This document shows, in pieces, positions 2,191 to 56,620 of a DNA stretch of 64,000 bases. The DNA is from Thiotrichales bacterium. GTDB lineage: Bacteria > Pseudomonadota > Gammaproteobacteria > Francisellales > CACEW01. The stretch spans positions 6,145 through 70,144 of the forward strand of contig CANJUQ010000005.1 of NCBI GenBank assembly GCA_947478175.1. The letters are read 5' to 3'. The stretch's first letter is position 1; the number at the start of each line of letters is the position of its first letter. The notes below the pieces were generated by a model. The model made no database searches. It saw nothing but the letters and a program-made list of their open reading frames with translations, and was not told the DNA's origin. A program made the translations under genes and the position numbers.

Positions 2191-5025
2191 TTACAAACCC
2201 AGGGCCAGCAAGTCTTCTGGTACTGACTGGGGATCTCTGGGTTGATGTTGAGCTAAAAATAATACGCGGGCTTGAACCGAGGGAGCGTCTTGTTTTTCGC
2301 CAGCGAGCAAAAATAAATCTAAATCGAGGCCAGGAGAGAGCTTTAGATGGCTCAGTGCTTCAAAGAAAAACTTTAGGGTTTCTAATTTTTTTGATTCGTC
2401 TTCTCTAAATTCAACATCCAAAGGGTTTGGTGATGCAGTGGTTTCTTGGTCTGGGTCCCGCATGGCTGAACCAAATAAAATTTTAAAAGCGGTGTAGCGT
2501 TGGCCGCTTAAATTTGAAGGTTTTAATGTTTGTAAGGTGCGAAAAATATGGATGGGCCAATTAGAGGGTTCCATAGCAGCAGCGGTGCATACAAAATCTT
2601 TAGATTGGGCATGGAAACCATTGAGGTGGGGCATCCATTTTTGGAGTACAGAGGGTAGGTATGAGGGCACGCTTAATAAGCGATTTAATTTTTGTAGTTG
2701 GATCACTTTTGGATTAGTTAAATCAAAATTAAATCTCACTCGCAAAGCAATTCCTGCGGGTGTTTCGGGAAGGAGCGGCAAAATTTTTTCTAGAGATTCT
2801 TGAACTGAACGATAGAACTCTAGTGGCATGGTAGTGCTGGAAAAAGAGAGCAAGTGGAGAATTTGAGCGCTGGGGATTGTCGATGGGCCTAAAGCTTGAA
2901 GTGTTTTTCTGAGGCCCCAGAAAATACTGTAATGCTCAGGAGAGCGGCGGGGCACAGGTAGATGTGAGGCTGCCCTGATTTCTAACTGGGCTTTGGCGTG
3001 TTCGAATGAAGCTAAAATAACTCCGATTTTGCTAATGTTGCTAGTGACCGACAAGCTGGCGGGAAGGGTGTCTGGAGTAAAACCAGGAACACTCGGGGAA
3101 GCCATGGGCCTAGGACGGAAAGTTGGAATAGAGGGTTCATAATTTTGGTGAATAAATCGGTGTTTGACGGCAGCTAAAATTTTGAATAAAGCACCTGGTG
3201 CGGATCCAATAATAATGCTGGAGAAATCTGGATGAATGCTAGCTAAATAGTCCAGAAGGGCATCGTAGCGAAAAGTTTCTGTAGAGAGTTTGGGTGAGCT
3301 GAGAATATGAGATAAAGCTTCTTGAGCGCTGCGAGAAGTTAGTAATTGCTGATTAAGTTTCCAATAAAATTCATGAAAGAATGCGGCATTCAAAGGAATT
3401 TGAGTCGAGAGAGCTTTTTGAAGACTTTGAAAACCTGTGAGAGTGTTTAAATTGGCATAAATAGATCCAATAGGATCGGATAGCCATGAATTGGATGTAA
3501 TAACTAAGCGTCGATAGGGCTTATTGGGATGAGAGCTACCTGATATGACAAAGTTAAGTTCAGGTGTCAGGAATTCTGGTTTTAAATTAAGCAAGATCGT
3601 GAGTAAGTTCCAATTTTGTTTTTCTAGGGTTTTTGAAATTAATTTTTGAATGACTAAAGGGTTCTTTTGGATAAGAGCTAAGCCAAAAGCAATTTTTGCA
3701 TAAGCCAATCCGACGGGGTTTTTAGAGAGATCCGCTGCATTTTCTATAAAATCTTTAAAATTGATTAAGCCCTGAGAAATTAATTCTGACAAGCCTGGTT
3801 GAATGGCTCGAAATGTCTCGGGGTCTTTGGCGATTTCAAAAAATTTTTCTAAAAAATCAGTCGGTATTTGAGCTTGTTTAAAATAAGGGGAAAGTGATTT
3901 TCTGAAGTGACGAAGTGCCGTTTTTTCTTCAGGGGGTGTTAGATCTAATGGCTGTAATAAAGTACGTAAATCTTGTCGGTGGATTCCTAATTGGTCAGTC
4001 CAAATTTGCTTTAAGCAGCCTAAGAGCCAGAGTGGGTCTGAGAGAATGAAATCTGGGTGAGAAAGTATTTTGAGCACGAATTTTTTTTCTTTAGGGGTGC
4101 TCTCGGGGGAAGTGAGCAGGAGGGTCAAAAGTTCAGAGTTTTGGTAGCTGGCAGCAAATAAGGTCAGTAATAGCATGATGCGTGCACGGGAATTTTTATT
4201 AAGGGCCGTCAGTGAAAAAGATAAACCAGAAAAAATGACTCCTCCTGATTGAATAAACATTTCGTCATAAACAGAGTCATTAGGAGTAAAACCAAATGGC
4301 ACAATATCACTGATTTTGACCCCTAGTGCCAGGCCATTCAAAACATAAAGGTCAAAACCTTCTTGAGTAGTTATCGGTGGTTTTTGAGATGTATTAAATT
4401 TAATAGCCCAGCTCGGTTTGGAACTAGCAGTGCCTAGTGCTGCTGGTGATGAGATTGAATAATTAGTTATTTCTGCTGGGAATTGATGGGTTTCTAAGGC
4501 TTGAATCAATTTTGTTTTAATTGATAAAGATTCTGCGCTGCCATCGAGTAATTCTAATCTAGCCATTATTTCTTTGACTACAGGGGTGTAAAACTCTTCC
4601 CAATAAGCCCATAAACTTTGCACGAAAAAAATAAATTGTTCGCGATGCGTTGAAATATCTGGAGCACGGGTTTTGTCTAATGCTGGAATAGCCAAGATGA
4701 GCTGTTTTAGAAAAGAGGGCGCTGTTTCTGTTTTTATCTCAGAGGTTTTAGGGGTTAGCTCTTGAGAGAGCTGATTAGCCAAAATCAAAATAGCTCTGAG
4801 ATGTATTTGATAAGCAGGATTTCGGGTTTTGATACAGGCGAGAATTAATTCTGAACACAGATCTAATTTTGAAAAAGAATTTTTTACACAATAGGTAAAG
4901 AGCGCTTCTTCGAGGGCTTGTTGGATTTTTTTTGGATCTGTGAGATTTAAAAAATAATGAATAAATCGGGATGATTTTAAAATATTTAAATCAACGATTG
5001 GGGTCGTAGCTGGGGCTCCTGACAT
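2191..5025 (-). CDS. Large orphan protein (944 aa), Leu-rich and probably helical, no recognisable domain; candidate secreted effector
   Basis: Long uninterrupted ORF. Start context is TAATAGGAGTGTTACATGTCAGGA. The N-terminal 90 aa share a pattern with ORF <1..2159 (F-H-FL-L ... LF-T-C ... EL--AC-K ... HL-A-LI--N-L). Confidence 0.75.
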   Translation of the reverse strand: MSGAPATTPIVDLNILKSSRFIHYFLNLTDPKKIQQALEEALFTYCVKNSFSKLDLCSELILACIKTRNPAYQIHLRAILILANQLSQELTPKTSEIKTETAPSFLKQLILAIPALDKTRAPDISTHREQFIFFVQSLWAYWEEFYTPVVKEIMARLELLDGSAESLSIKTKLIQALETHQFPAEITNYSISSPAALGTASSKPSWAIKFNTSQKPPITTQEGFDLYVLNGLALGVKISDIVPFGFTPNDSVYDEMFIQSGGVIFSGLSFSLTALNKNSRARIMLLLTLFAASYQNSELLTLLLTSPESTPKEKKFVLKILSHPDFILSDPLWLLGCLKQIWTDQLGIHRQDLRTLLQPLDLTPPEEKTALRHFRKSLSPYFKQAQIPTDFLEKFFEIAKDPETFRAIQPGLSELISQGLINFKDFIENAADLSKNPVGLAYAKIAFGLALIQKNPLVIQKLISKTLEKQNWNLLTILLNLKPEFLTPELNFVISGSSHPNKPYRRLVITSNSWLSDPIGSIYANLNTLTGFQSLQKALSTQIPLNAAFFHEFYWKLNQQLLTSRSAQEALSHILSSPKLSTETFRYDALLDYLASIHPDFSSIIIGSAPGALFKILAAVKHRFIHQNYEPSIPTFRPRPMASPSVPGFTPDTLPASLSVTSNISKIGVILASFEHAKAQLEIRAASHLPVPRRSPEHYSIFWGLRKTLQALGPSTIPSAQILHLLSFSSTTMPLEFYRSVQESLEKILPLLPETPAGIALRVRFNFDLTNPKVIQLQKLNRLLSVPSYLPSVLQKWMPHLNGFHAQSKDFVCTAAAMEPSNWPIHIFRTLQTLKPSNLSGQRYTAFKILFGSAMRDPDQETTASPNPLDVEFREDESKKLETLKFFFEALSHLKLSPGLDLDLFLLAGEKQDAPSVQARVLFLAQHQPRDPQSVPEDLLALGL

Positions 5026-6833: not shown

Positions 6834-7916
6834 ATGTCTTATTTTTCACAAGACCCCAATCGATATTTATTTATTACGGCCTGTCTTAATGGAAATCCTG
6901 CCACGGCAAAATTGTTGATGGCCGCGAATCAAGACATAGGTAATCCCTATGAAAAAATAGCCGATAGGGTCCAGTTAATGGAGCATGCCCTTGAAGAAAT
7001 TAAGTATTCTGTGGCCGTGCGGGATCAAGACGGTTTAGATCAATTTAAAGCAATTATTAAATTATTAGATCCAGATAAATCTTATCTTACAGAGCAGCTT
7101 TATATCGCCGCCATGACACATGATGAAAATCGATTGAAAGTTTTGATTGATGGAGGTGCGGATATCAATCAAAGCAGCATGGGTTATGGTTCTGTGAAAG
7201 ACGCTGTGAGGACGTTGAAGGTCTCAGATGACGTGGATTTTAAATTAAAATTAGATAAATGGACTGCAGAAGCTTCAGCGCCATTATCTTCAACGATGTC
7301 CTCTCCTTCGGGAGCAGTTGCTTTAGCTAGGCCTTTTTTGCGTTTGGATGATTTCGCTAAGAAACATGCGCTCTATCGAGTGAAGTTAGGAGAGAATCTA
7401 GATAGTCCCATTTTTGAAGGCGCAGCAGAAACCCTCATCAGTTTTGCAAGCCGTGCGGGGTTTGGGGGTGAACTTATGTCACAACATGCGTTGAAACATA
7501 AGCAGCTACCGAAAGGTTTAGAGAGAGAAACAAAAGAGGCATTACTAAGAGAGGCAGCAACTAAAGTTTCTATGGCGGCCAGTGATTATGAGCTAGATAA
7601 AATTGCTATGGCATATACCCCTCTTTTGGCCCTACATCGAGATGATAGGTCTTATGGACAGACAGCTTCTATAAAAGCTTTCGACAAATTTAAAGAAGAA
7701 AAATCTGATCAGCTAGCCCGAGGAGAAGTCTCTCCTGCTGCAAGTGCTCATGCGTTTTTTGGTTCTCCAGCCATAGGTGCTTTAGGTCCTGTGAAGCCTG
7801 TCCCTCTTCCTGGGTCTCCAGGTCCAGATGATCAAAGTTCTGTTTCTTTTGGTGGTGCAGGTTCTGGCGCTGGTATAGGTACTGGAGCAGGTGGGCCGAG
7901 TTCACCAGGTTTTTAA
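6834..7916 (+). CDS. Hypothetical protein with ankyrin-like repeats and a Gly/Ser/Pro-rich C-terminal tail
   Basis: RBS AAAGGTGA precedes the ATG. LFITACLNGNPATAKLLMAANQDIG and LYIAAMTHDENRLKVLIDGGADINQ resemble ankyrin consensus (A--G----vk-Li--GAdiN). The tail is GSPGPDDQSSVSFGGAGSGAGIGTGAGGPSSPGF. Confidence 0.6.
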   Translation: MSYFSQDPNRYLFITACLNGNPATAKLLMAANQDIGNPYEKIADRVQLMEHALEEIKYSVAVRDQDGLDQFKAIIKLLDPDKSYLTEQLYIAAMTHDENRLKVLIDGGADINQSSMGYGSVKDAVRTLKVSDDVDFKLKLDKWTAEASAPLSSTMSSPSGAVALARPFLRLDDFAKKHALYRVKLGENLDSPIFEGAAETLISFASRAGFGGELMSQHALKHKQLPKGLERETKEALLREAATKVSMAASDYELDKIAMAYTPLLALHRDDRSYGQTASIKAFDKFKEEKSDQLARGEVSPAASAHAFFGSPAIGALGPVKPVPLPGSPGPDDQSSVSFGGAGSGAGIGTGAGGPSSPGF

Positions 7917-8839
7917 AACCATTGATTAATAGTTTTCTTAAAATCCTTCGCATTCGGCTGGCCGTAATACAGCCCCAGCATATGGCGAGTGATGGAATGC
8001 AACGTCCGATTTTTTTGAGAAGTTTGTTCAAGAACCCAGGGTTTTAATTTCTGTAAAATGTCTTCACGAGACATTGAAAAATCAGGATCAAAATAGGATT
8101 TTTCAATTTGGGTCAGTAAATACGGATTGTGATACGCCGCGCGGCCAATCATGACACCGTCGGTATGTTTTAGATGATCGTCTATTTGGGAAATTTGCGT
8201 GATACCGCCATTAATCTGAATAGAACAGTCAGGGAAATCTTGTTTAAGTTGATAGACCCGCAAGTAATCTAGTGGCGGAATTTCACGATTTTCTTTGGGG
8301 CTTAGTCCAGACAACCAGCCTTTTCGAGCATGGATAATAAATTCTCGGCAGGGAGTTTGCGTTTTAATTTGGTCTATAAAATTTTGTAAATTCTCATAGC
8401 TATCTAAATCATCGACGCCTGTTCTGGTTTTGACGGTGACAGGAATATTTTTACTGGATTCAGCGATGGCGTTTAAACAATCAATCACTCGGGGTGGGTC
8501 TTTCATCAGACATAGACCGAACATACCAGACTGAACTCGGTCAGACGGACAGCCAATGTTTAAATTAAATTCGTCATAGTTAAATTCAGTACTGATTTGA
8601 GTGGCTTTAGAGAGTATTTCTGGATTAGACCCGCCGAGCTGTAAAGCAATGGGGTGTTCCATAGAGTCATCAAAACTTAATAATCTTTCAGGATCACCAT
8701 GAGTGATGGCTTGGTCTGTGATCATTTCTGTATAGAGCCAAATATGGGGTGATAAAATTCTGTGAAAATATCGGCAGTATTGATCGGTCCAATCCATCAT
8801 GGGTGCGACGGAGATTTTGGGGGTGGGTTTTATCTTCAC
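7913..8839 (-). CDS. dusA: tRNA-dihydrouridine(20/20a) synthase
   Basis: SVAPMMDWTDQYCRYFHR, NLNIGCPSDRVQSGMFGLCLM and IIHARKGWLSGLSPKENREIPPLDY match E. coli DusA closely. GTG start at 8839 overlaps the vapC stop (GTGA). Confidence 0.9.
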   Translation of the reverse strand: MKIKPTPKISVAPMMDWTDQYCRYFHRILSPHIWLYTEMITDQAITHGDPERLLSFDDSMEHPIALQLGGSNPEILSKATQISTEFNYDEFNLNIGCPSDRVQSGMFGLCLMKDPPRVIDCLNAIAESSKNIPVTVKTRTGVDDLDSYENLQNFIDQIKTQTPCREFIIHARKGWLSGLSPKENREIPPLDYLRVYQLKQDFPDCSIQINGGITQISQIDDHLKHTDGVMIGRAAYHNPYLLTQIEKSYFDPDFSMSREDILQKLKPWVLEQTSQKNRTLHSITRHMLGLYYGQPNAKDFKKTINQWF

Positions 8840-9240
8840 TCAGGTGAGACCATTCTGACTTTTGGGTAGTAGGTTTTGTAACGCGAAGCATCTCGGGTGA
8901 GTAGAATTAAATTTTCGGTTAAAGCATGAGCGCCAATGAAAAAATCAGGGAGCGTAGAGGCTTTAGTTCCCCCTTTTTTCTTATATTGAATAAAAGATTT
9001 CCCTGCTAAAAAAGCAGCTTCCCACGGTAACGAAACACGCAAAATTTCAGAGGGTAAAGATTTGTCGAGCTCTTCAGATGTTTTAAATCGGACAGAGATT
9101 TCGCCATAGATAATGGGATTAATACAAAGCGTATTATGTTCAGAAAGCTCGGCGAGCTGTTCTGAAGACCACGAGAACCAGAGAGGATCTTCGGTGAAAA
9201 TATCTAATAAAATATTGCTATCGATCAAAACTCTTTTCAC
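8836..9240 (-). CDS. vapC: Type II toxin VapC (PIN-domain ribonuclease)
   Basis: 134 aa. PIN acidic residues are in context: LIDSN, YGEIS, PDFFIGAHA, LLTRD. It sits directly downstream of an AbrB-fold antitoxin gene. Confidence 0.85.
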   Translation of the reverse strand: MKRVLIDSNILLDIFTEDPLWFSWSSEQLAELSEHNTLCINPIIYGEISVRFKTSEELDKSLPSEILRVSLPWEAAFLAGKSFIQYKKKGGTKASTLPDFFIGAHALTENLILLTRDASRYKTYYPKVRMVSPE

Positions 9241-9256
9241 AGATTATTTTCCCTTC

Positions 9257-9487
9257 TTATTTCTCACCACGAGTCATAGCCATGATCTGATCGGTTGAGA
9301 GTTTGGTGCTGCCCTTGCCTCGTAATTGTTCTATTAGCGACTGGCTTCTTTTGGAGGGGGATTCACTTTTTTCTAAGTAAACCCGTCCATTTTCTAGTAA
9401 GAATTCGATTTCTGTATGAGGTAATAATCCCAAAGATTCTCGAATGTGTAATGGTATGGTCACTTGTCCTTTGCTCGTAATATGCAT
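9257..9487 (-). CDS. vapB: Type II antitoxin VapB (AbrB/SpoVT fold)
   Basis: 76 aa. SKGQVTIPLHIRESLGL is the SpoVT/AbrB looped-hinge-helix motif. The gap to vapC is 16 bp. Confidence 0.8.
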   Translation of the reverse strand: MHITSKGQVTIPLHIRESLGLLPHTEIEFLLENGRVYLEKSESPSKRSQSLIEQLRGKGSTKLSTDQIMAMTRGEK

Positions 9488-9532
9488 GGCTCGCTCTTTT
9501 TTCTTACTTTCACAGGTAGGAATTTTAAGGAG

Positions 9533-10999
9533 TTATTTTTTAAAAACAAGGGGCTTTGTCTTAATTTTGACTTTATCTCCCTCGCGATAGAGCAAATATT
9601 CAAATAGTCCTGAGGGATAATTTGTTTCTAAAATCCCCTGATATTCCGGCTGGCATTGCTTCCAGATTTCATAGACGGGGGTATCAAAACTTAAATAAAT
9701 CCCCGGGGTATTTTCTTGGGTATAAACCTGACGCCAGGCATAACAAAAATCAGCCAAATTTTTTAAATAGGGAAATTGTTTGGTGCATTCAAATTGGGAT
9801 AAATAATCTGAAAAATCTTCGCCATAGGTATTTAAATTAAAATCTTGAACAAAATTCTCATTGGCATAATTAAAAATACACCCGTCAAATAAATCAGGCT
9901 CTAAAATTTTTGAGAGGGGCTTAAAAGTTTTTTTTAAAATTTTCTCGCGAGAGCCCACCATGCTTTTGTAATAAATATGGGCCCGAGATTCTGGGGAAAT
10001 ATTTGGAAAAATAGTGGGTGAAATTATTTTATATAAATCTAGAGGATCACCCGTTAGATAATTTATCCAGGCAGATTCTGAGTTTTGTTTTGAATTTTGT
10101 TTTGAATTTTGTTTTGAATTTTTTTCTGGGATTTTTTTATTAGGAAAAAATAAAAGATTAGATTTTTCTATCTCTGCAGAGAGTTTGGGTTGAGGGTTTT
10201 GAATAATTTTTTGGATAGTCTGGGTCTCTTCCAGAATTTTATTAAAGCTGGGTAAGTCATTATCCCATTCTAAACAAGTGGGGATGGGGCCATGCTGAGC
10301 TTGAATCTCTGCAAAACAATTGAGGACCCTCTCGGAAACAGCCCGGCTGTGGGTGTCGATCCATAGGCCGTCGTGATATTCAGCACCTGCCAAGTGAATT
10401 TGTTTGACGGAATTAAACGGAATTTCTTGTAAAAATGGTTCAGGTGATTCGCCATGATTGTCAGCCGTTACGAAAATATTATTAATATCTAATAACAAAC
10501 CGCAGCCTGTTTTTTGAGTGAGTTTTTTTAAAAATTCAGCTTCAGAAAGAGGGGAATCTAAAAATCTAAAATAAGACGAAATATTTTCGATTAAAAAATT
10601 TTTCTTAAATCTTGTTTGTAATAAATCAATGCGCCGAGCAACGCGATCTAAAATTTTATAGTCCCATGGGATGGGTAATAGATCATGAGTAAAAATAGGG
10701 CCCACTTTGGAAAAACACAGATGGTCTGAAATCCATTCGGGTTCATAGCGATGAATTAAATTTTCTAGAAATTTTAAATAGCGAGAAGATATTCTTGCTT
10801 GGCTCGCCAGAGATAAATTGACACTGTGTAAAACGCAGGGATAAATTTCTCGAAGCTGATCTAATTTTTTTAATAAAAATTCTGGGACTTCAAAATATTG
10901 ATCTGCTAAAAATTCTAGCCACTGAATAGAGTTATATTTTTTCTCTAGTAAATCTTGAAAATACTGAGATCGAAGCCCCAGGCCTGTGTTGATAATCAT
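9533..10999 (-). CDS. MNIO (DUF692, BufB-like) oxidase fused to a DUF2063 (BufC-like) partner domain
   Basis: The N-terminal ~275 aa carry DUF692 hallmarks: GLGLRSQY, LHSVNLSLAS, ISDHLCF, LIENISSYF, TGCGLLLDINNIFV, IHLAGAEY, IDTHSRAV, CLEWDNDLP. The linker is PEKNSKQNSKQNSKQNSES. The C-terminal ~180 aa fit the DUF2063 pattern: RAHIYYKSMVGSREKILKKTF..., NLNTYGEDFSDYL, YLKNLADFCYAW. Confidence 0.85.
   Translation of the reverse strand: MIINTGLGLRSQYFQDLLEKKYNSIQWLEFLADQYFEVPEFLLKKLDQLREIYPCVLHSVNLSLASQARISSRYLKFLENLIHRYEPEWISDHLCFSKVGPIFTHDLLPIPWDYKILDRVARRIDLLQTRFKKNFLIENISSYFRFLDSPLSEAEFLKKLTQKTGCGLLLDINNIFVTADNHGESPEPFLQEIPFNSVKQIHLAGAEYHDGLWIDTHSRAVSERVLNCFAEIQAQHGPIPTCLEWDNDLPSFNKILEETQTIQKIIQNPQPKLSAEIEKSNLLFFPNKKIPEKNSKQNSKQNSKQNSESAWINYLTGDPLDLYKIISPTIFPNISPESRAHIYYKSMVGSREKILKKTFKPLSKILEPDLFDGCIFNYANENFVQDFNLNTYGEDFSDYLSQFECTKQFPYLKNLADFCYAWRQVYTQENTPGIYLSFDTPVYEIWKQCQPEYQGILETNYPSGLFEYLLYREGDKVKIKTKPLVFKK
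10083..10118 (-). repeat. In-frame 12-bp x 3 tandem repeat (KQNS)3 in the interdomain linker
   Basis: The plus strand reads ttttgttttgaa three times, perfectly. Confidence 0.9.
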
Positions 11000-11025
11000 T
11001 TAAATTTTTAGATTATTTTTTTGAA

Positions 11026-11424
11026 TTATTTTTTTGAATTATTTTTTGGATCAGGTTTTTTTTCGAGTTTGCCTAAAACACCGCCTTTAACATTCATGCA
11101 AACGCCTTTGGGAATGGCGATCCAAGCTGCAGGAGAATTATTGACGGCGGCTGTTCCACCACAGGCCGTGCTATTTGTCGCGCAATCGTTTTCTCCAGCG
11201 GCTGCAACGCCATAACATTCGACATAGTCATCGGCGGTCACGTCGACCATTTGGGTGTGGGCTAATTTTTCGCAAATGCCTTTGGTTGTCATGAGGGGGG
11301 CGTCAGGGCTTGCTTTAGAGATGCCATAACACTCGACTAATTTATCTTGAGGATTGCCGCCACTACAGCCGGCTAATAATAAAATGGAACTGAGAGTTGC
11401 TGTATTGAGGATAATTTTTTTCAT
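11026..11424 (-). CDS. DUF2282 (bufferin-type) RiPP precursor; lipoprotein signal, partial plus full Cys-rich core
   Basis: Signal MKKIILNTATLSSILLLAG|C contains a lipobox. The full DUF2282 core is VECYGVAAAGENDCATNSTACGGTAAVNNSPAAWIAIPKGVCMNVKGG. It is preceded by a shortened copy, VECYGISKASPDAPLMTTKGICEKL. The gene lies 26 bp upstream of the MNIO gene. Confidence 0.85.
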   Translation of the reverse strand: MKKIILNTATLSSILLLAGCSGGNPQDKLVECYGISKASPDAPLMTTKGICEKLAHTQMVDVTADDYVECYGVAAAGENDCATNSTACGGTAAVNNSPAAWIAIPKGVCMNVKGGVLGKLEKKPDPKNNSKK

Positions 11425-11439
11425 GTTGGATTTTCCGTG

Positions 11440-11952
11440 TTATTTAATTTGAACCCAGGGGGCATTTTTGTTTGAACTGCGATGAGTTAAATGGCCCCAT
11501 TTTTTGTGAATAAAATAATCTAAAGAAAACCGCCCCATGCCATGGAACATCAGCATCATGAGCAATAAACCCCAGAGTACATGGTCGTCGAAACCAGCAT
11601 CGCCTGAGGGAGTCCATAAAAAATGAAAAGAAAGAACGCAGATAACATTGTAAATAAGGAACATGAAGATAAATAAACGCCCACCGAGTCCCAGGACTAA
11701 AAGTATGGGAAAAAGTAGCTCTACGAAGGTTCCCAAATAGGCTGCAAAGGCGGGGGACATAAACGGTGTTGAATAGACATATTTAAATAAAACTAAAGTT
11801 GTATCCCAATCCGTGAGTTTGCTCAGCCCTGAAGTAAAAAAAACTTGAGCGATCCAGAGTCTAACAACCAAGTCTCCTAAATCTCGACAGCGGTTAAAGA
11901 TGTGAAGTAGTGGACTGAGTAATTTGGATGAAATCTCGATGTGTTTTTTCAT
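11440..11952 (-). CDS. DoxX family membrane protein
   Basis: 170 aa with about 4 TM segments. DoxX pattern: VRLWIAQVFFTSGLSKL, GTFVELLFPILLVLGLGGRL, GMGRFSLDYF. The gap to the precursor gene is 15 bp. Confidence 0.8.
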   Translation of the reverse strand: MKKHIEISSKLLSPLLHIFNRCRDLGDLVVRLWIAQVFFTSGLSKLTDWDTTLVLFKYVYSTPFMSPAFAAYLGTFVELLFPILLVLGLGGRLFIFMFLIYNVICVLSFHFLWTPSGDAGFDDHVLWGLLLMMLMFHGMGRFSLDYFIHKKWGHLTHRSSNKNAPWVQIK

Positions 11953-12012
11953 AAAAAATATTTCTGACCGGGCTTGTTAAAACGGGCGGGAATATAGCAT
12001 AGCTTGCTTACA

Positions 12013-12834
12013 TCAGACTACTCTCACCAAAGCTTTCAAGGCTCTCATCAAATTGTTTGTCAGACTCCTCAAGAAATTCAGCAATTCCCTGCATATTTGT
12101 TTTTGGAGAAGATGGGTGTGGGTTAAGCGTTGTATCATCGGTAGCATCAAAAAAGAAAATTCCCATGAAGCTCGAACTTTTTTTGCGAGCTCACAATGTG
12201 CAGAAGAAAGCGCGGGGTCTTTGATTAAATAGTGATCCAAACAATTTATGATGTTCATATAGAAGGTGAAATTTTTTTCAGAAATAAAATCTTCTTGAGA
12301 TTGGCTGCTGATACAAAGCGCTTTAACGGGTTCATAGATGTGTTTTTTAAAAATGGCCTCTCTTAAATAATCTTGGGCACCTTGGGCGGCGGCTGCTTCT
12401 AATTGAGCTACTGCAAGTAAAAAAGCAGAGATGATGGCTCCTAAATTAGAAGTGGCAGTTGTTATTATTTTTAATTTCAAAGGATTTTTTTCTTTCAATA
12501 CCAACGCTTTTTGGATTGCAACTTTGTCTGTTATCATGCTGATTAGAAGTTCCGATAAATTAGATGTGAGTAGGGCTGGAACGTCATGGATGCTGTAGAT
12601 CTTCTCGAAAATATTTTTATGTGTTTCGTTAAAATTAGTGTCATATTCAGCGGCTTTTTCTGGGGTCATAGCAGTTTTATCTTTGACTAACTGGAGTAGC
12701 TCTTGAAGAAGCTGCGAAAAACCTTTGACCATTTTTTTTAAGTCTTGAATTTTTTCCCTGCCGTAGGCAGACATTGGAATGGTGGGCCTGGTGGGCCTGG
12801 TGGGAATGGCGACTGCAAACGCTGATCCTGACAT
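12013..12834 (-). CDS. Orphan protein (273 aa), MSG N-terminus, PTR repeat
   Basis: Long ORF starting ATGTCAGGA. A 9-bp repeat ggtgggcct at 12781-12804 encodes (RPT)n. No recognisable domain. Confidence 0.55.
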   Translation of the reverse strand: MSGSAFAVAIPTRPTRPTIPMSAYGREKIQDLKKMVKGFSQLLQELLQLVKDKTAMTPEKAAEYDTNFNETHKNIFEKIYSIHDVPALLTSNLSELLISMITDKVAIQKALVLKEKNPLKLKIITTATSNLGAIISAFLLAVAQLEAAAAQGAQDYLREAIFKKHIYEPVKALCISSQSQEDFISEKNFTFYMNIINCLDHYLIKDPALSSAHCELAKKVRASWEFSFLMLPMIQRLTHTHLLQKQICRELLNFLRSLTNNLMRALKALVRVV

Positions 12835-12903
12835 GAGAGATATCCGATTTTTATTATAGTAAGCGCGGATTTTACTGCTGGAAATATAGATTTTTATGTT
12901 TTT

Positions 12904-13668
12904 TTAGGTCCAAATGGCCACGACAGCCATGAGTCCAAAGCCTATGAGAAGCAGGCTGAAATATTGTAAATGGTGAAGTTTGTCTTTTGGATTTTTATCT
13001 AGATTTTTATTTGGGTTTTCTGGGCCATGAGAGATTCCCAAATAAATAAAAGTACCCGCAGCCAGGCTATTAAAACAAGGTTCTAAAAGAGGGGCTTGTG
13101 AAAAATCATGATGAATCGCTGTACCGATTAAAATCCCCAAGGGGGTCATGAAAGCAAAGATTAAAAATAGAAAAACGCGTGATAAAAATCCGTAATGGCT
13201 TTGATTAATTTTGACAGCAATCGCAAATCCCGCAGCCCATTTATGAGCCAAGATGGCGGTAAGAATAATCCCTGCCATGACGAGATTATTAGTGAGACCT
13301 AATGCAGAGCCTTCTAATAAAGAGTGAATCGAAAGCATCAACGTTCCAATGAGGGCCATTGAAGTAATAGGGATACTTTCTTCGAAGATCCAAAGTAATA
13401 AAAAAGCCAGGCCAGCTAATAAAAAAGCAAAAGGGTATTGATAGCCTAATGTTAAAAATTGACTGGAGGCATCGCCTAATAAATGGATTAACCCAGCGCC
13501 TAGAAAAACCCCCTGGGAAAAAGCGAGTGCCCAAGAAAAGTTAGAGGGAAACAAAGAATTTTGAGTGTTTTTAAATTTTTGATGAAAGGGCAAATAACCC
13601 GAAATTAAAGTCATTATGAGTAATAAAAAAATAGAAATTAATTTGAAATGAAAAAGTGAAGTGTGCAT
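12904..13668 (-). CDS. ZIP family divalent-metal transporter
   Basis: Multi-TM protein with ZIP signatures SIHSLLEGSALG and AILAHKWAAGFAIAV. Confidence 0.75.
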   Translation of the reverse strand: MHTSLFHFKLISIFLLLIMTLISGYLPFHQKFKNTQNSLFPSNFSWALAFSQGVFLGAGLIHLLGDASSQFLTLGYQYPFAFLLAGLAFLLLWIFEESIPITSMALIGTLMLSIHSLLEGSALGLTNNLVMAGIILTAILAHKWAAGFAIAVKINQSHYGFLSRVFLFLIFAFMTPLGILIGTAIHHDFSQAPLLEPCFNSLAAGTFIYLGISHGPENPNKNLDKNPKDKLHHLQYFSLLLIGFGLMAVVAIWT

Positions 13669-56225: not shown

Positions 56226-56302
56226 CGGGGTATAGCGCAGCCTGGTAGCGCGCTTGCTTTGGGAGCAAGATGTCGAGAGTTCAAATCCCTCTACCCCGAC
56301 CA
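56226..56302 (+). tRNA. tRNA-Pro (UGG)
   Basis: CGGGGTA.../...TACCCCGACCA. Anticodon loop CTTTGGGA. Confidence 0.93.
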
Positions 56303-56330
56303 AATTATTGAAAGAAGTAAAGAGTAACGA

Positions 56331-56407
56331 GCGCCCGTAGCTCATCTGGATAGAGCATCGACCTTCTAAGCCGAGGGTAGCAGGTTCGAATCCTGCCGGG
56401 CGCGCCA
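56331..56407 (+). tRNA. tRNA-Arg (UCU)
   Basis: GCGCCCGTAGCTCATCTGGATAGAGCATCGACCTTCTAAGCCGAGG... resembles E. coli argU. Anticodon is TCT. Confidence 0.93.
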
Positions 56408-56434
56408 GATTTTGTATGTTGTGAGATTTTTAAT

Positions 56435-56511
56435 GGTGGATGTAGCTCAGTTGGTAGAGTCCCGGATTGTGATTCCGGTCGCCGTGGGTTCAAGTCCCAT
56501 CATCCACCCCA
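56435..56511 (+). tRNA. tRNA-His (GUG)
   Basis: Has the extra 5' G(-1). GGTGGATGTAGCTCAGTTGGTAGAGTCCCGGATTGTGATTCCGG...CCACCCCA. Confidence 0.95.
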
Positions 56512-56535
56512 TGTCTTGATTGTTTTCTAGCCCAT

Positions 56536-56620
<85 letters not shown>

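Follow-up and report, generated by a model that had tools for sequence, protein, structure and literature searches.

A conserved two-module variant of the Buf1 bufferin precursor with a predicted lipoprotein signal in uncultured Gammaproteobacteria

Bufferins are the largest family of MNIO-modified RiPPs (ribosomally made peptides with post-translational modifications) and provide a widespread copper defence. Here, we describe a bufferin locus in a 64,000-nucleotide stretch of contig CANJUQ010000005.1 (assembly GCA_947478175.1) from a Thiotrichales bacterium of the Gammaproteobacteria; this whole stretch is referred to as the window, and all coordinates are positions within it. Between 9533 and 11952 on the minus strand lie three tightly packed genes in the order doxX, bufA and a fused MNIO-DUF2063 gene. 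The middle one, a precursor gene of the bufA type (11026..11424, (-); stop codon at 11026-11028), encodes a protein of 132 amino acids that matches Pfam PF10048 and for which we collected 57 homologues. The list of open reading frames (ORFs) and the translation bear out this reading frame as given in a preliminary description of the window. Upstream, doxX (11440..11952, (-)) ends 15 nt before the precursor start and encodes a BufD/HvfX-like membrane protein of 170 amino acids (Pfam DoxX, 52.2 bits); its best NCBIfam model is the HvfX family, at 51.5 bits and thus under the cut-off of 80. The maturase gene (9533..10999, (-); 488 amino acids) starts 26 nt past the precursor stop codon and joins a BufB-like MNIO part (residues 5-266; Pfam PF05114 MbnB_TglH_ChrH, 288.6 bits) to a BufC-like DUF2063 part (residues 328-400 plus a C-terminal part; Pfam PF09836, 29.7 bits). 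Its product also matched PDB entry 3BWW (E 1.7e-32), and 3.7 copies of a 12-bp tandem repeat at 10079-10122 code for its low-complexity linker, KNSKQNSKQNSKQNSE.

This gene set recurs in other genomes. The precursor is linked to MNIO, DUF2063 and doxX in all 14 related loci with enough flanking DNA (L001-L014), and doxX was present in 16 of 16 related loci. Three gene orders occur among the former, with MNIO and DUF2063 either fused or separate: the fusion seen in the window is shared with L001, L002, L009, L010 and L011, while the two are separate genes in L003-L007 and L012-L014. Such fusions are not mentioned in PMC12452194. The DUF2063 partner protein is typically 250-260 amino acids long (PMC12452194); in the closest relatives the corresponding part has ∼175-190. 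We conclude that the locus is a buf1-type bufferin gene cluster in which MNIO and its partner are fused.

The precursor itself has an unusual anatomy, for which all sub-coordinates (minus strand throughout) were checked by translation. Residues 1-20 read MKKIILNTATLSSILLLAGC and comprise the signal peptide M1-G19 and the lipobox Cys (MKKIILNTATLSSILLLAG then C; 11365..11424, (-)), as assigned by translation and the lipobox pattern. An alignment of the family delimits a Ser/Gly/Asn-rich tether of variable length (residues 21-28, SGGNPQDK; 11341..11364, (-)), followed by module 1 (residues 29-57, LVECYGISKASPDAPLMTTKGICEKLAHT; 11254..11340, (-)), which corresponds to a DUF2282 fold without the 20-residue loop that holds CysII and CysIII. 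A nine-residue linker (residues 58-66, QMVDVTADD; 11227..11253, (-)) leads to module 2 (residues 67-118, YVECYGVAAAGENDCATNSTACGGTAAVNNSPAAWIAIPKGVCMNVKGGVLG; 11071..11226, (-)), a full DUF2282 core, and the protein ends in a basic tail (residues 119-132, KLEKKPDPKNNSKK; 11029..11070, (-)) that is predicted to be disordered (pLDDT ∼53-55). There are seven Cys residues, C20, C32, C51, C70, C81, C88 and C109. Both peptide strings quoted in the preliminary description, and the Lys-rich tail, are exact to the letter; its spacer of 14 residues has to be corrected to 13 (residues 55-67), counted from CEKL (L54) to the second VECYG (V68). At the nucleotide level, a perfect 13-bp tandem repeat (ATTATTTTTTTGA, 2.8 copies, 11012-11047) spans the stop codon and encodes the end of the tail (NNSKK and stop). 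Since its copies are exact, the loss of one would leave the C-terminus unchanged.

Module 2 identifies the protein as a bufferin. Pfam PF10048 (DUF2282/BufA1) matched residues 69-116 with 67 bits (cut-off 22.4; E 1.4e-18), and this was the only DUF2282 domain reported. The four Cys, Y71, G72, N79, D80, W101 and P105 are invariant in the family alignment, and four Cys were likewise counted in 256 of the 275 full-size DUF2282 domains of our sample. In bufferin 1, the two central residues (CysII and CysIII) are modified and the outer pair forms a disulfide (PMC12452194, PMC11626156); by analogy, 5-thiooxazoles are predicted at C81 (in NDC) and C88 (in AC) of module 2, and a disulfide between its C70 and C109. 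The PF10048 score, the four core Cys, the Sec-type signal and the linkage to MNIO, DUF2063 and DoxX together place the precursor in Buf1 (DUF2282/BufA1), within which it represents a distinct and conserved sub-family.

Because Pfam sees a single DUF2282 domain, the relationship of module 1 to the core required a separate homology test. To this end, the 57 homologues were aligned (alignment A1), and position statistics were taken from 54 aligned full-length members. When the module-1 and module-2 columns were compared with hhalign, all 32 module-1 columns were covered with a probability of 95-97% and a score of 47.4, far above chance as judged from 100 column-shuffled versions of module 1 (8.8 ± 1.8, maximum 14.8). 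The alignment contained one 20-column gap, which falls exactly on 'NDCaT..tACGGt..v.r', the loop with CysII and CysIII, and it equates C32 with CysI and C51 with CysIV. Isolated module-1 peptides of seven diverse members, scanned against 24,736 Pfam families at E ≤ 10, matched DUF2282 in four cases (E 4.6e-4 to 0.2) and no other family. Among 5.8 billion proteins, a profile restricted to module 1 with its tether and linker (A3) matched 64, all of them canonical four-Cys PF10048 proteins of 80-116 amino acids (best E 3.7e-6), the matches spanning ECYGVSKAG at one end and PKGxCEKLAGG at the other. No stand-alone two-Cys module-1 protein was among them; oddly, the family's own members were not listed in this search either. 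Finally, tblastn of a canonical core against the window had just two matches, module 2 at E 2e-12 and module 1 at E 0.004, and hence revealed no second DUF2282 gene in the window.

Module 1 also falls into a size class of its own: 68 of 70 copies have two Cys, and in 67 of 70 the pair is spaced by 16-18 residues, as compared with the four Cys and the 38-40 residues between the outermost pair in full DUF2282 domains. An AlphaFold2 model computed with the family alignment (mean pLDDT 77; 82-95 over module 1) gave both modules a strand-strand-helix-strand order, namely E29-33, E44-47, H48-53 and E58-61 in module 1, and E67-71, E101-105, H106-111 and E116-118 in module 2. Both modules have their first Cys in strand 1 and their last in the short helix, the positions at which the disulfide Cys of bufferin 1 are found (PMC11626156). 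A PDB sequence search with the family profile found nothing, and Foldseek of the model against PDB gave nothing meaningful (best E 0.99). Judged by these alignments, module 1 is a genuine DUF2282 homologue from which a single clean deletion of 20 residues has removed the CysII/CysIII loop, that is, a bufferin scaffold that has kept the disulfide pair and lost the metal-binding loop. The proposal that the first segment is a shortened DUF2282 copy with CysI and CysIV only thus stands, and the opposite possibility, an ordinary leader without homology to the core, does not agree with the family alignment.

Module 1 is under purifying selection. Mean pairwise identity is 0.50 for module 1 and 0.66 for module 2, and drops to 0.33 in the tether, 0.33 in the linker and 0.19 in the tail. 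Three of the module-1 residues (C32, C51 and K53) do not vary at all, and three more (G34, G49 and L54) hardly do.

We then considered the N-terminus. A lipobox follows the rule {DERK}(6)-[LIVMFWSTAG](2)-[LIVMFYSTAGCQ]-[AGS]-C (PROSITE PS00013), with the Cys at position 15-35 and a Lys or Arg near the N-terminus; this pattern was scored by script. The precursor carries a Sec-type signal with a basic n-region (K2, K3), and its hydrophobic region (I4-L17) continues unbroken into L17-A18-G19-C20, so that the cleavage motif is of the lipoprotein type, with LLAG before C20. The strict pattern was found in 60 of 71 two-module proteins, and Cys occupies the C20 position in 53 of the 54 aligned full-length members. 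The exceptions mostly have truncated or mis-started N-termini, or AxA signal peptidase I sites. The latter are informative: P0036, P0060, P0066, P0067 and P0072 have an AxA site in place of the lipobox and six Cys instead of seven. Since these orthologues have exactly one Cys fewer, C20 should lack a disulfide partner, and its exchange together with the type of signal is what would be expected of a lipidated Cys. The +2 residue is mostly Ser, Gly or Asn in the family (Asp in a few members) and Ser in the window; for such residues the E. coli +2 rule gives Lol-dependent sorting to the outer membrane (PMC13056109). In our sample, a lipobox was present in only ∼4 of 122 single-core DUF2282 proteins (∼3%; P0077, P0114, P0178, P0057/P0233). 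Lipidation thus appears, on sequence criteria, to be characteristic of the two-module clade and rare elsewhere in Buf1, and we consider the precursor of the window very probably lipidated. The classical LLLAG lipobox noted at the outset is therefore real and conserved, and no signal peptidase I site is apparent upstream of the Cys, as L-A-G does not offer a small residue at both -3 and -1. With module-1 homology added to the conserved lipobox, a membrane-anchored product with two modules, as originally suggested, is the best reading of the sequence.

The two-module architecture itself is near certain, and it recurs in a conserved clade of 71 collected sequences, all from uncultured Gammaproteobacteria. 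When 1.84 billion cluster representatives were searched exhaustively with the family profile (HMMER, E ≤ 0.001), 1124 DUF2282-type proteins were obtained; both modules were covered in ∼21 of the best 150, and only module 2 in the rest. On this basis the clade would be small, at about 2% of representatives. The genome matches all come from metagenome-assembled Gammaproteobacteria of lakes, groundwater and sea ice. Two loci from lake metagenome-assembled genomes with a two-module bufferin, L001 and L004, belong to records titled 'Francisella tularensis subsp. holarctica'. The GyrA of the window's organism, however, is no more than 79% identical to any database entry (Gammaproteobacteria metagenome-assembled genomes) and 74% identical to that of Legionella and Endozoicomonas, which sets it far apart from the named genera, so that these labels look misassigned. 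Within the clade, a sub-clade (P0042, P0044-P0050, P0052, P0053, P0055, P0056) has a ∼25-residue insert between modules 1 and 2 (A1 columns ∼90-117); this insert in the linker region adds two Cys (C..W.......C), giving 9-10 in total. The sample also contained eight full Buf1/Buf1 tandems; P0073, P0076 and P0175 are examples of proteins in which both copies are complete (8 or 12 Cys). From the representative search came a further protein, P0116 (150 amino acids), a DUF2282-like tandem in which both copies lack CysII and CysIII (NDC to NDG) and keep the CysI/CysIV pair only, and thus an independent 'disulfide-only' bufferin fold in another lineage.

The closest characterized relative is bufferin 1 of Caulobacter vibrioides (BufA1, encoded in bufABCD; PMC11626156). 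As in bufferin 1, module 2 is a DUF2282 core with four conserved Cys including the N-D-C motif, the N-terminal signal is of the Sec type, genes for an MNIO, a DUF2063 partner and DoxX lie next to it, and the predicted fold places the disulfide Cys in strand 1 and a short helix (PMC11626156). Unlike bufferin 1, the window precursor has a signal of the lipoprotein (signal peptidase II) type and an extra, loop-deleted copy of the fold N-terminal to the core. The loci differ as well: in the window MNIO and DUF2063 are fused in one ORF, doxX is located upstream rather than downstream, and no sigF/nrsF regulator genes were seen near the locus.

Neither lipidation nor duplication is without precedent among bufferins, and the earlier premise of a single core following a plain Sec signal in the bufferins described does not hold. 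Approximately 16% of Buf2 bufferins have lipoprotein signal peptides, and Buf1/Buf1 fusions (e.g. OAD22792.1) as well as duplicated 12-Cys Buf2 proteins have been listed (PMC12452194). In addition, 'DAG-RiPPs' have been published as RiPP-lipoprotein hybrids: DybA and the EGKCG peptide NedA (oxazolin type) were shown to be triacylated, and signal peptidase II signals were noted in subsets of both the bufferins and the oxazolins (PMC13056109). The window precursor resembles DybA and NedA in having a lipobox Cys directly after the signal peptide of an MNIO-linked, Sec-exported precursor (PMC13056109, PMC12452194), and the order of events expected for it would be the same, with cytoplasmic modification preceding export and triacylation. 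At the sequence level it qualifies as a DAG-RiPP, as the lipobox pattern is present and the precursor gene adjoins the MNIO gene. In contrast, the published cluster of lipidated 'bufferin-like' proteins is Buf2 (6/12-Cys), Buf1-type lipoproteins being found only as unclustered 'other' entries (PMC12636315), and experimental proof of lipidation concerns chryseobasin-like and EGKCG peptides and does not extend to any DUF2282 protein (PMC13056109). The string ECYG does not occur in the supplement of PMC12636315, the preprint version of PMC13056109, and the two-module family is therefore not in that list. The supplements of PMC12452194 contain no lipoprotein entries, and the Buf1 lipobox frequency given above was estimated from our own sample.

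Like the Buf1/Buf1 fusions and the 12-Cys Buf2 proteins (PMC12452194), the window precursor carries two modules of the bufferin fold on a single polypeptide with one signal peptide in front. It differs from them in that both of their copies are complete (8 or 12 Cys), whereas its N-terminal copy lacks the loop and the modifiable Cys. Nor is it a tandem of two complete four-Cys domains: Pfam finds one domain, and module 1 has two Cys and is 20 residues shorter. It is the loss of this loop and of both modifiable Cys that leaves Pfam with one detectable domain. A loop-deleted, two-Cys Buf1 copy on a lipidated Buf1 protein was not described in the literature searched. Taken together, the two-module lipobox bufferin is no new kind of system but a conserved variant, so far unremarked, of a known one; with its relatives it makes up the first coherent clade of DUF2282 bufferins for which lipidation is predicted.

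How might this precursor be processed? By analogy with Caulobacter bufferin 1, the fused MNIO-DUF2063 enzyme would convert C81 and C88 of module 2 to 5-thiooxazoles in the cytoplasm. Sec export would be followed by lipoprotein processing, in which Lgt would attach diacylglycerol to C20, signal peptidase II would cut at LLAG/C, and Lnt would N-acylate the new N-terminus. Ser at +2 would then, if the E. coli rule applies, direct the protein via the Lol pathway to the periplasmic face of the outer membrane. In the periplasm, disulfides would form between C32 and C51 in module 1 and between C70 and C109 in module 2, as suggested by the CysI-CysIV pair of bufferin 1 and the topology of the AlphaFold2 model. 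The predicted mature product would be a triacylated, membrane-tethered copper chelator of 113 residues with one metal site, in which module 1 would most likely serve as a disulfide-stabilized scaffold or stalk, keeping module 2 at a distance from the membrane or stabilizing it there. We regard this overall picture, from the pathway to the tethered single-site chelator and its scaffold, as moderately probable; for the role of module 1 as scaffold or stalk, taken by itself, the chances are at best even. Of the two roles offered for module 1 in the preliminary description, a leader-like element or a disulfide-only domain, we favour the latter because its Cys are homologous to the disulfide pair of bufferin 1.

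Several points weigh against the tethered-chelator picture. A structural stalk is a default explanation, and a binding function could explain just as well why K53, L54 and the Met-rich strand are conserved. The lipobox call rests on a pattern rule and on conservation. Moreover, a few relatives have signal peptidase I sites and no lipobox, which suggests that the two-module design is independent of lipidation. Within the bufferin-type MNIO group, the maturase, too, counts as divergent or fused, since its score against the NCBIfam equivalog NF050167 MNIO_BufB is 279.7 bits and does not reach the curated cut-off of 310; MNIO_BufB was still its top-scoring NCBIfam model, followed by HvfB at 193 bits.

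The main competing idea for module 1 is that of an uncleaved, leader-like docking element, a substrate-mimicking copy that would be bound by the DUF2063/RiPP recognition element part, so that module 2 is offered to the MNIO active site. BufA1 is recognized through its core rather than through its signal peptide (PMC11626156), and module 1 preserves exactly the non-loop parts of the core, its ECYGVSKAG and KGxCEKLAGG being closer to the ancestral motifs than those of module 2; these two facts make docking plausible, and the shortened partner part of the closest relatives (∼175-190 versus 250-260 amino acids) could accompany an altered recognition. However, Buf1 proteins of the canonical single-core type need no such element to be modified, and module 1 would remain in the mature exported protein, where the model depicts it as a folded, disulfide-bonded domain. 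Full-length BufC (243-255 amino acids; L006, L007 and L014) coexists with module 1 as well, and as long and short partners both occur, the presence of module 1 is uncorrelated with BufC length. A search across the loci for a link of module 1 to a short or fused BufC likewise gave none. We therefore consider docking somewhat unlikely. The same holds, with a lower estimate, for an extended version in which a former core copy was repurposed as an in-cis, uncleaved recognition or scaffolding domain for the maturase, and the lipid anchor places the copper module at the outer membrane or on vesicles of an uncultured, possibly host-associated gammaproteobacterium; we think this unlikely. If true, module 1 would be a natural RiPP 'leader-like' element born by core duplication and degeneration. 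That module 1 provides a second functional metal site, either through MNIO modification of a Cys (e.g. in the E-C32 motif) or through Cu(I) binding by a Met-rich strand (consensus PLMMTKGMC), is suggested by the many relatives with two or three Met near strand 2 and the helix (M46 in 39/54, M45 and M50 in ∼20/54) and by the NMR data on bufferin 1, which implicate residues of the β-sheet face in Cu binding (PMC11626156). Yet C32 and C51 align with CysI and CysIV, two residues that stay unmodified in bufferin 1 (PMC12452194), and the thiooxazole-bearing loop is wholly absent from module 1. With PLMTTKGIC, the window's own sequence has a single Met in the strand; there is thus no conserved requirement for the Met motif, and a second site seems quite improbable to us.

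Two further readings would deprive either the anchor or module 1 of its function. If signal peptidase I cut the precursor, the product would be a soluble, periplasmic two-module protein and C20 incidental; such a form should be viable, because five or six relatives have AxA sites and no lipobox Cys (P0036, P0060, P0066, P0067 and P0072). In the window precursor, by contrast, no small residues occupy both -3 and -1 before C20, and the hydrophobic region runs directly into the lipobox. Given, moreover, that the Cys is kept in 53/54 members and the strict pattern in 60/71, and that the odd number of seven Cys occurs only where a lipobox is present, this reading is very improbable. We attach still less weight to the notion of module 1 as a decaying, functionless remnant of a Buf1/Buf1 tandem, although the existence of full tandems (eight in our sample; PMC12452194) does make loop loss from one tandem copy a plausible origin. 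A relic would hardly retain an identity of 0.50 next to a tether and linker at 0.33 and a tail at 0.19, nor invariant Cys, Lys and Leu positions and a fixed length across proteins that are only 35-60% identical overall.

The clade offers a natural dissection of the Buf1 fold, with module 1 representing the disulfide scaffold only and module 2 the scaffold plus the thiooxazole loop. The clade could thus reveal which parts of a precursor are recognized by the maturase, and how the scaffold adds to stability and metal binding. Lipidation at C20 would extend the DAG-RiPPs to the DUF2282 class, with membrane tethering as the rule in one lineage. Surveys that count domains do not see this architecture, as the degenerate copy escapes Pfam and one domain only is reported.

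The surroundings of the cluster were also inspected. Directly upstream of doxX and on the same strand, 12013-12834 (-) and 12904-13668 (-) encode a ZIP-family metal transporter and a 273-amino-acid ORF without a Pfam match. Neither had a match in L001-L016, and they accompany the cluster only in the near-identical contigs L017-L019; as they are not kept beside it in other genomes, we did not count them as parts of it. A scan of 9000-13000 for promoters and terminators gave sites no more numerous than in shuffled sequence. Directly downstream of the cluster lie a PIN-domain (VapC-like) toxin and a MazE/AbrB-type antitoxin (8836-9240, (-), and 9257-9487, (-)). In an Rfam scan of the window, only tRNAs reached the threshold, in two four-gene clusters at 37009-37438 and 56226-56617 (+). 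Two further ORFs, of 944 (2191-5025, (-)) and 360 amino acids (6834-7916, (+)), had no Pfam match at E ≤ 0.001; the 360-amino-acid protein has a C-terminal tail rich in Gly, Ser and Pro.

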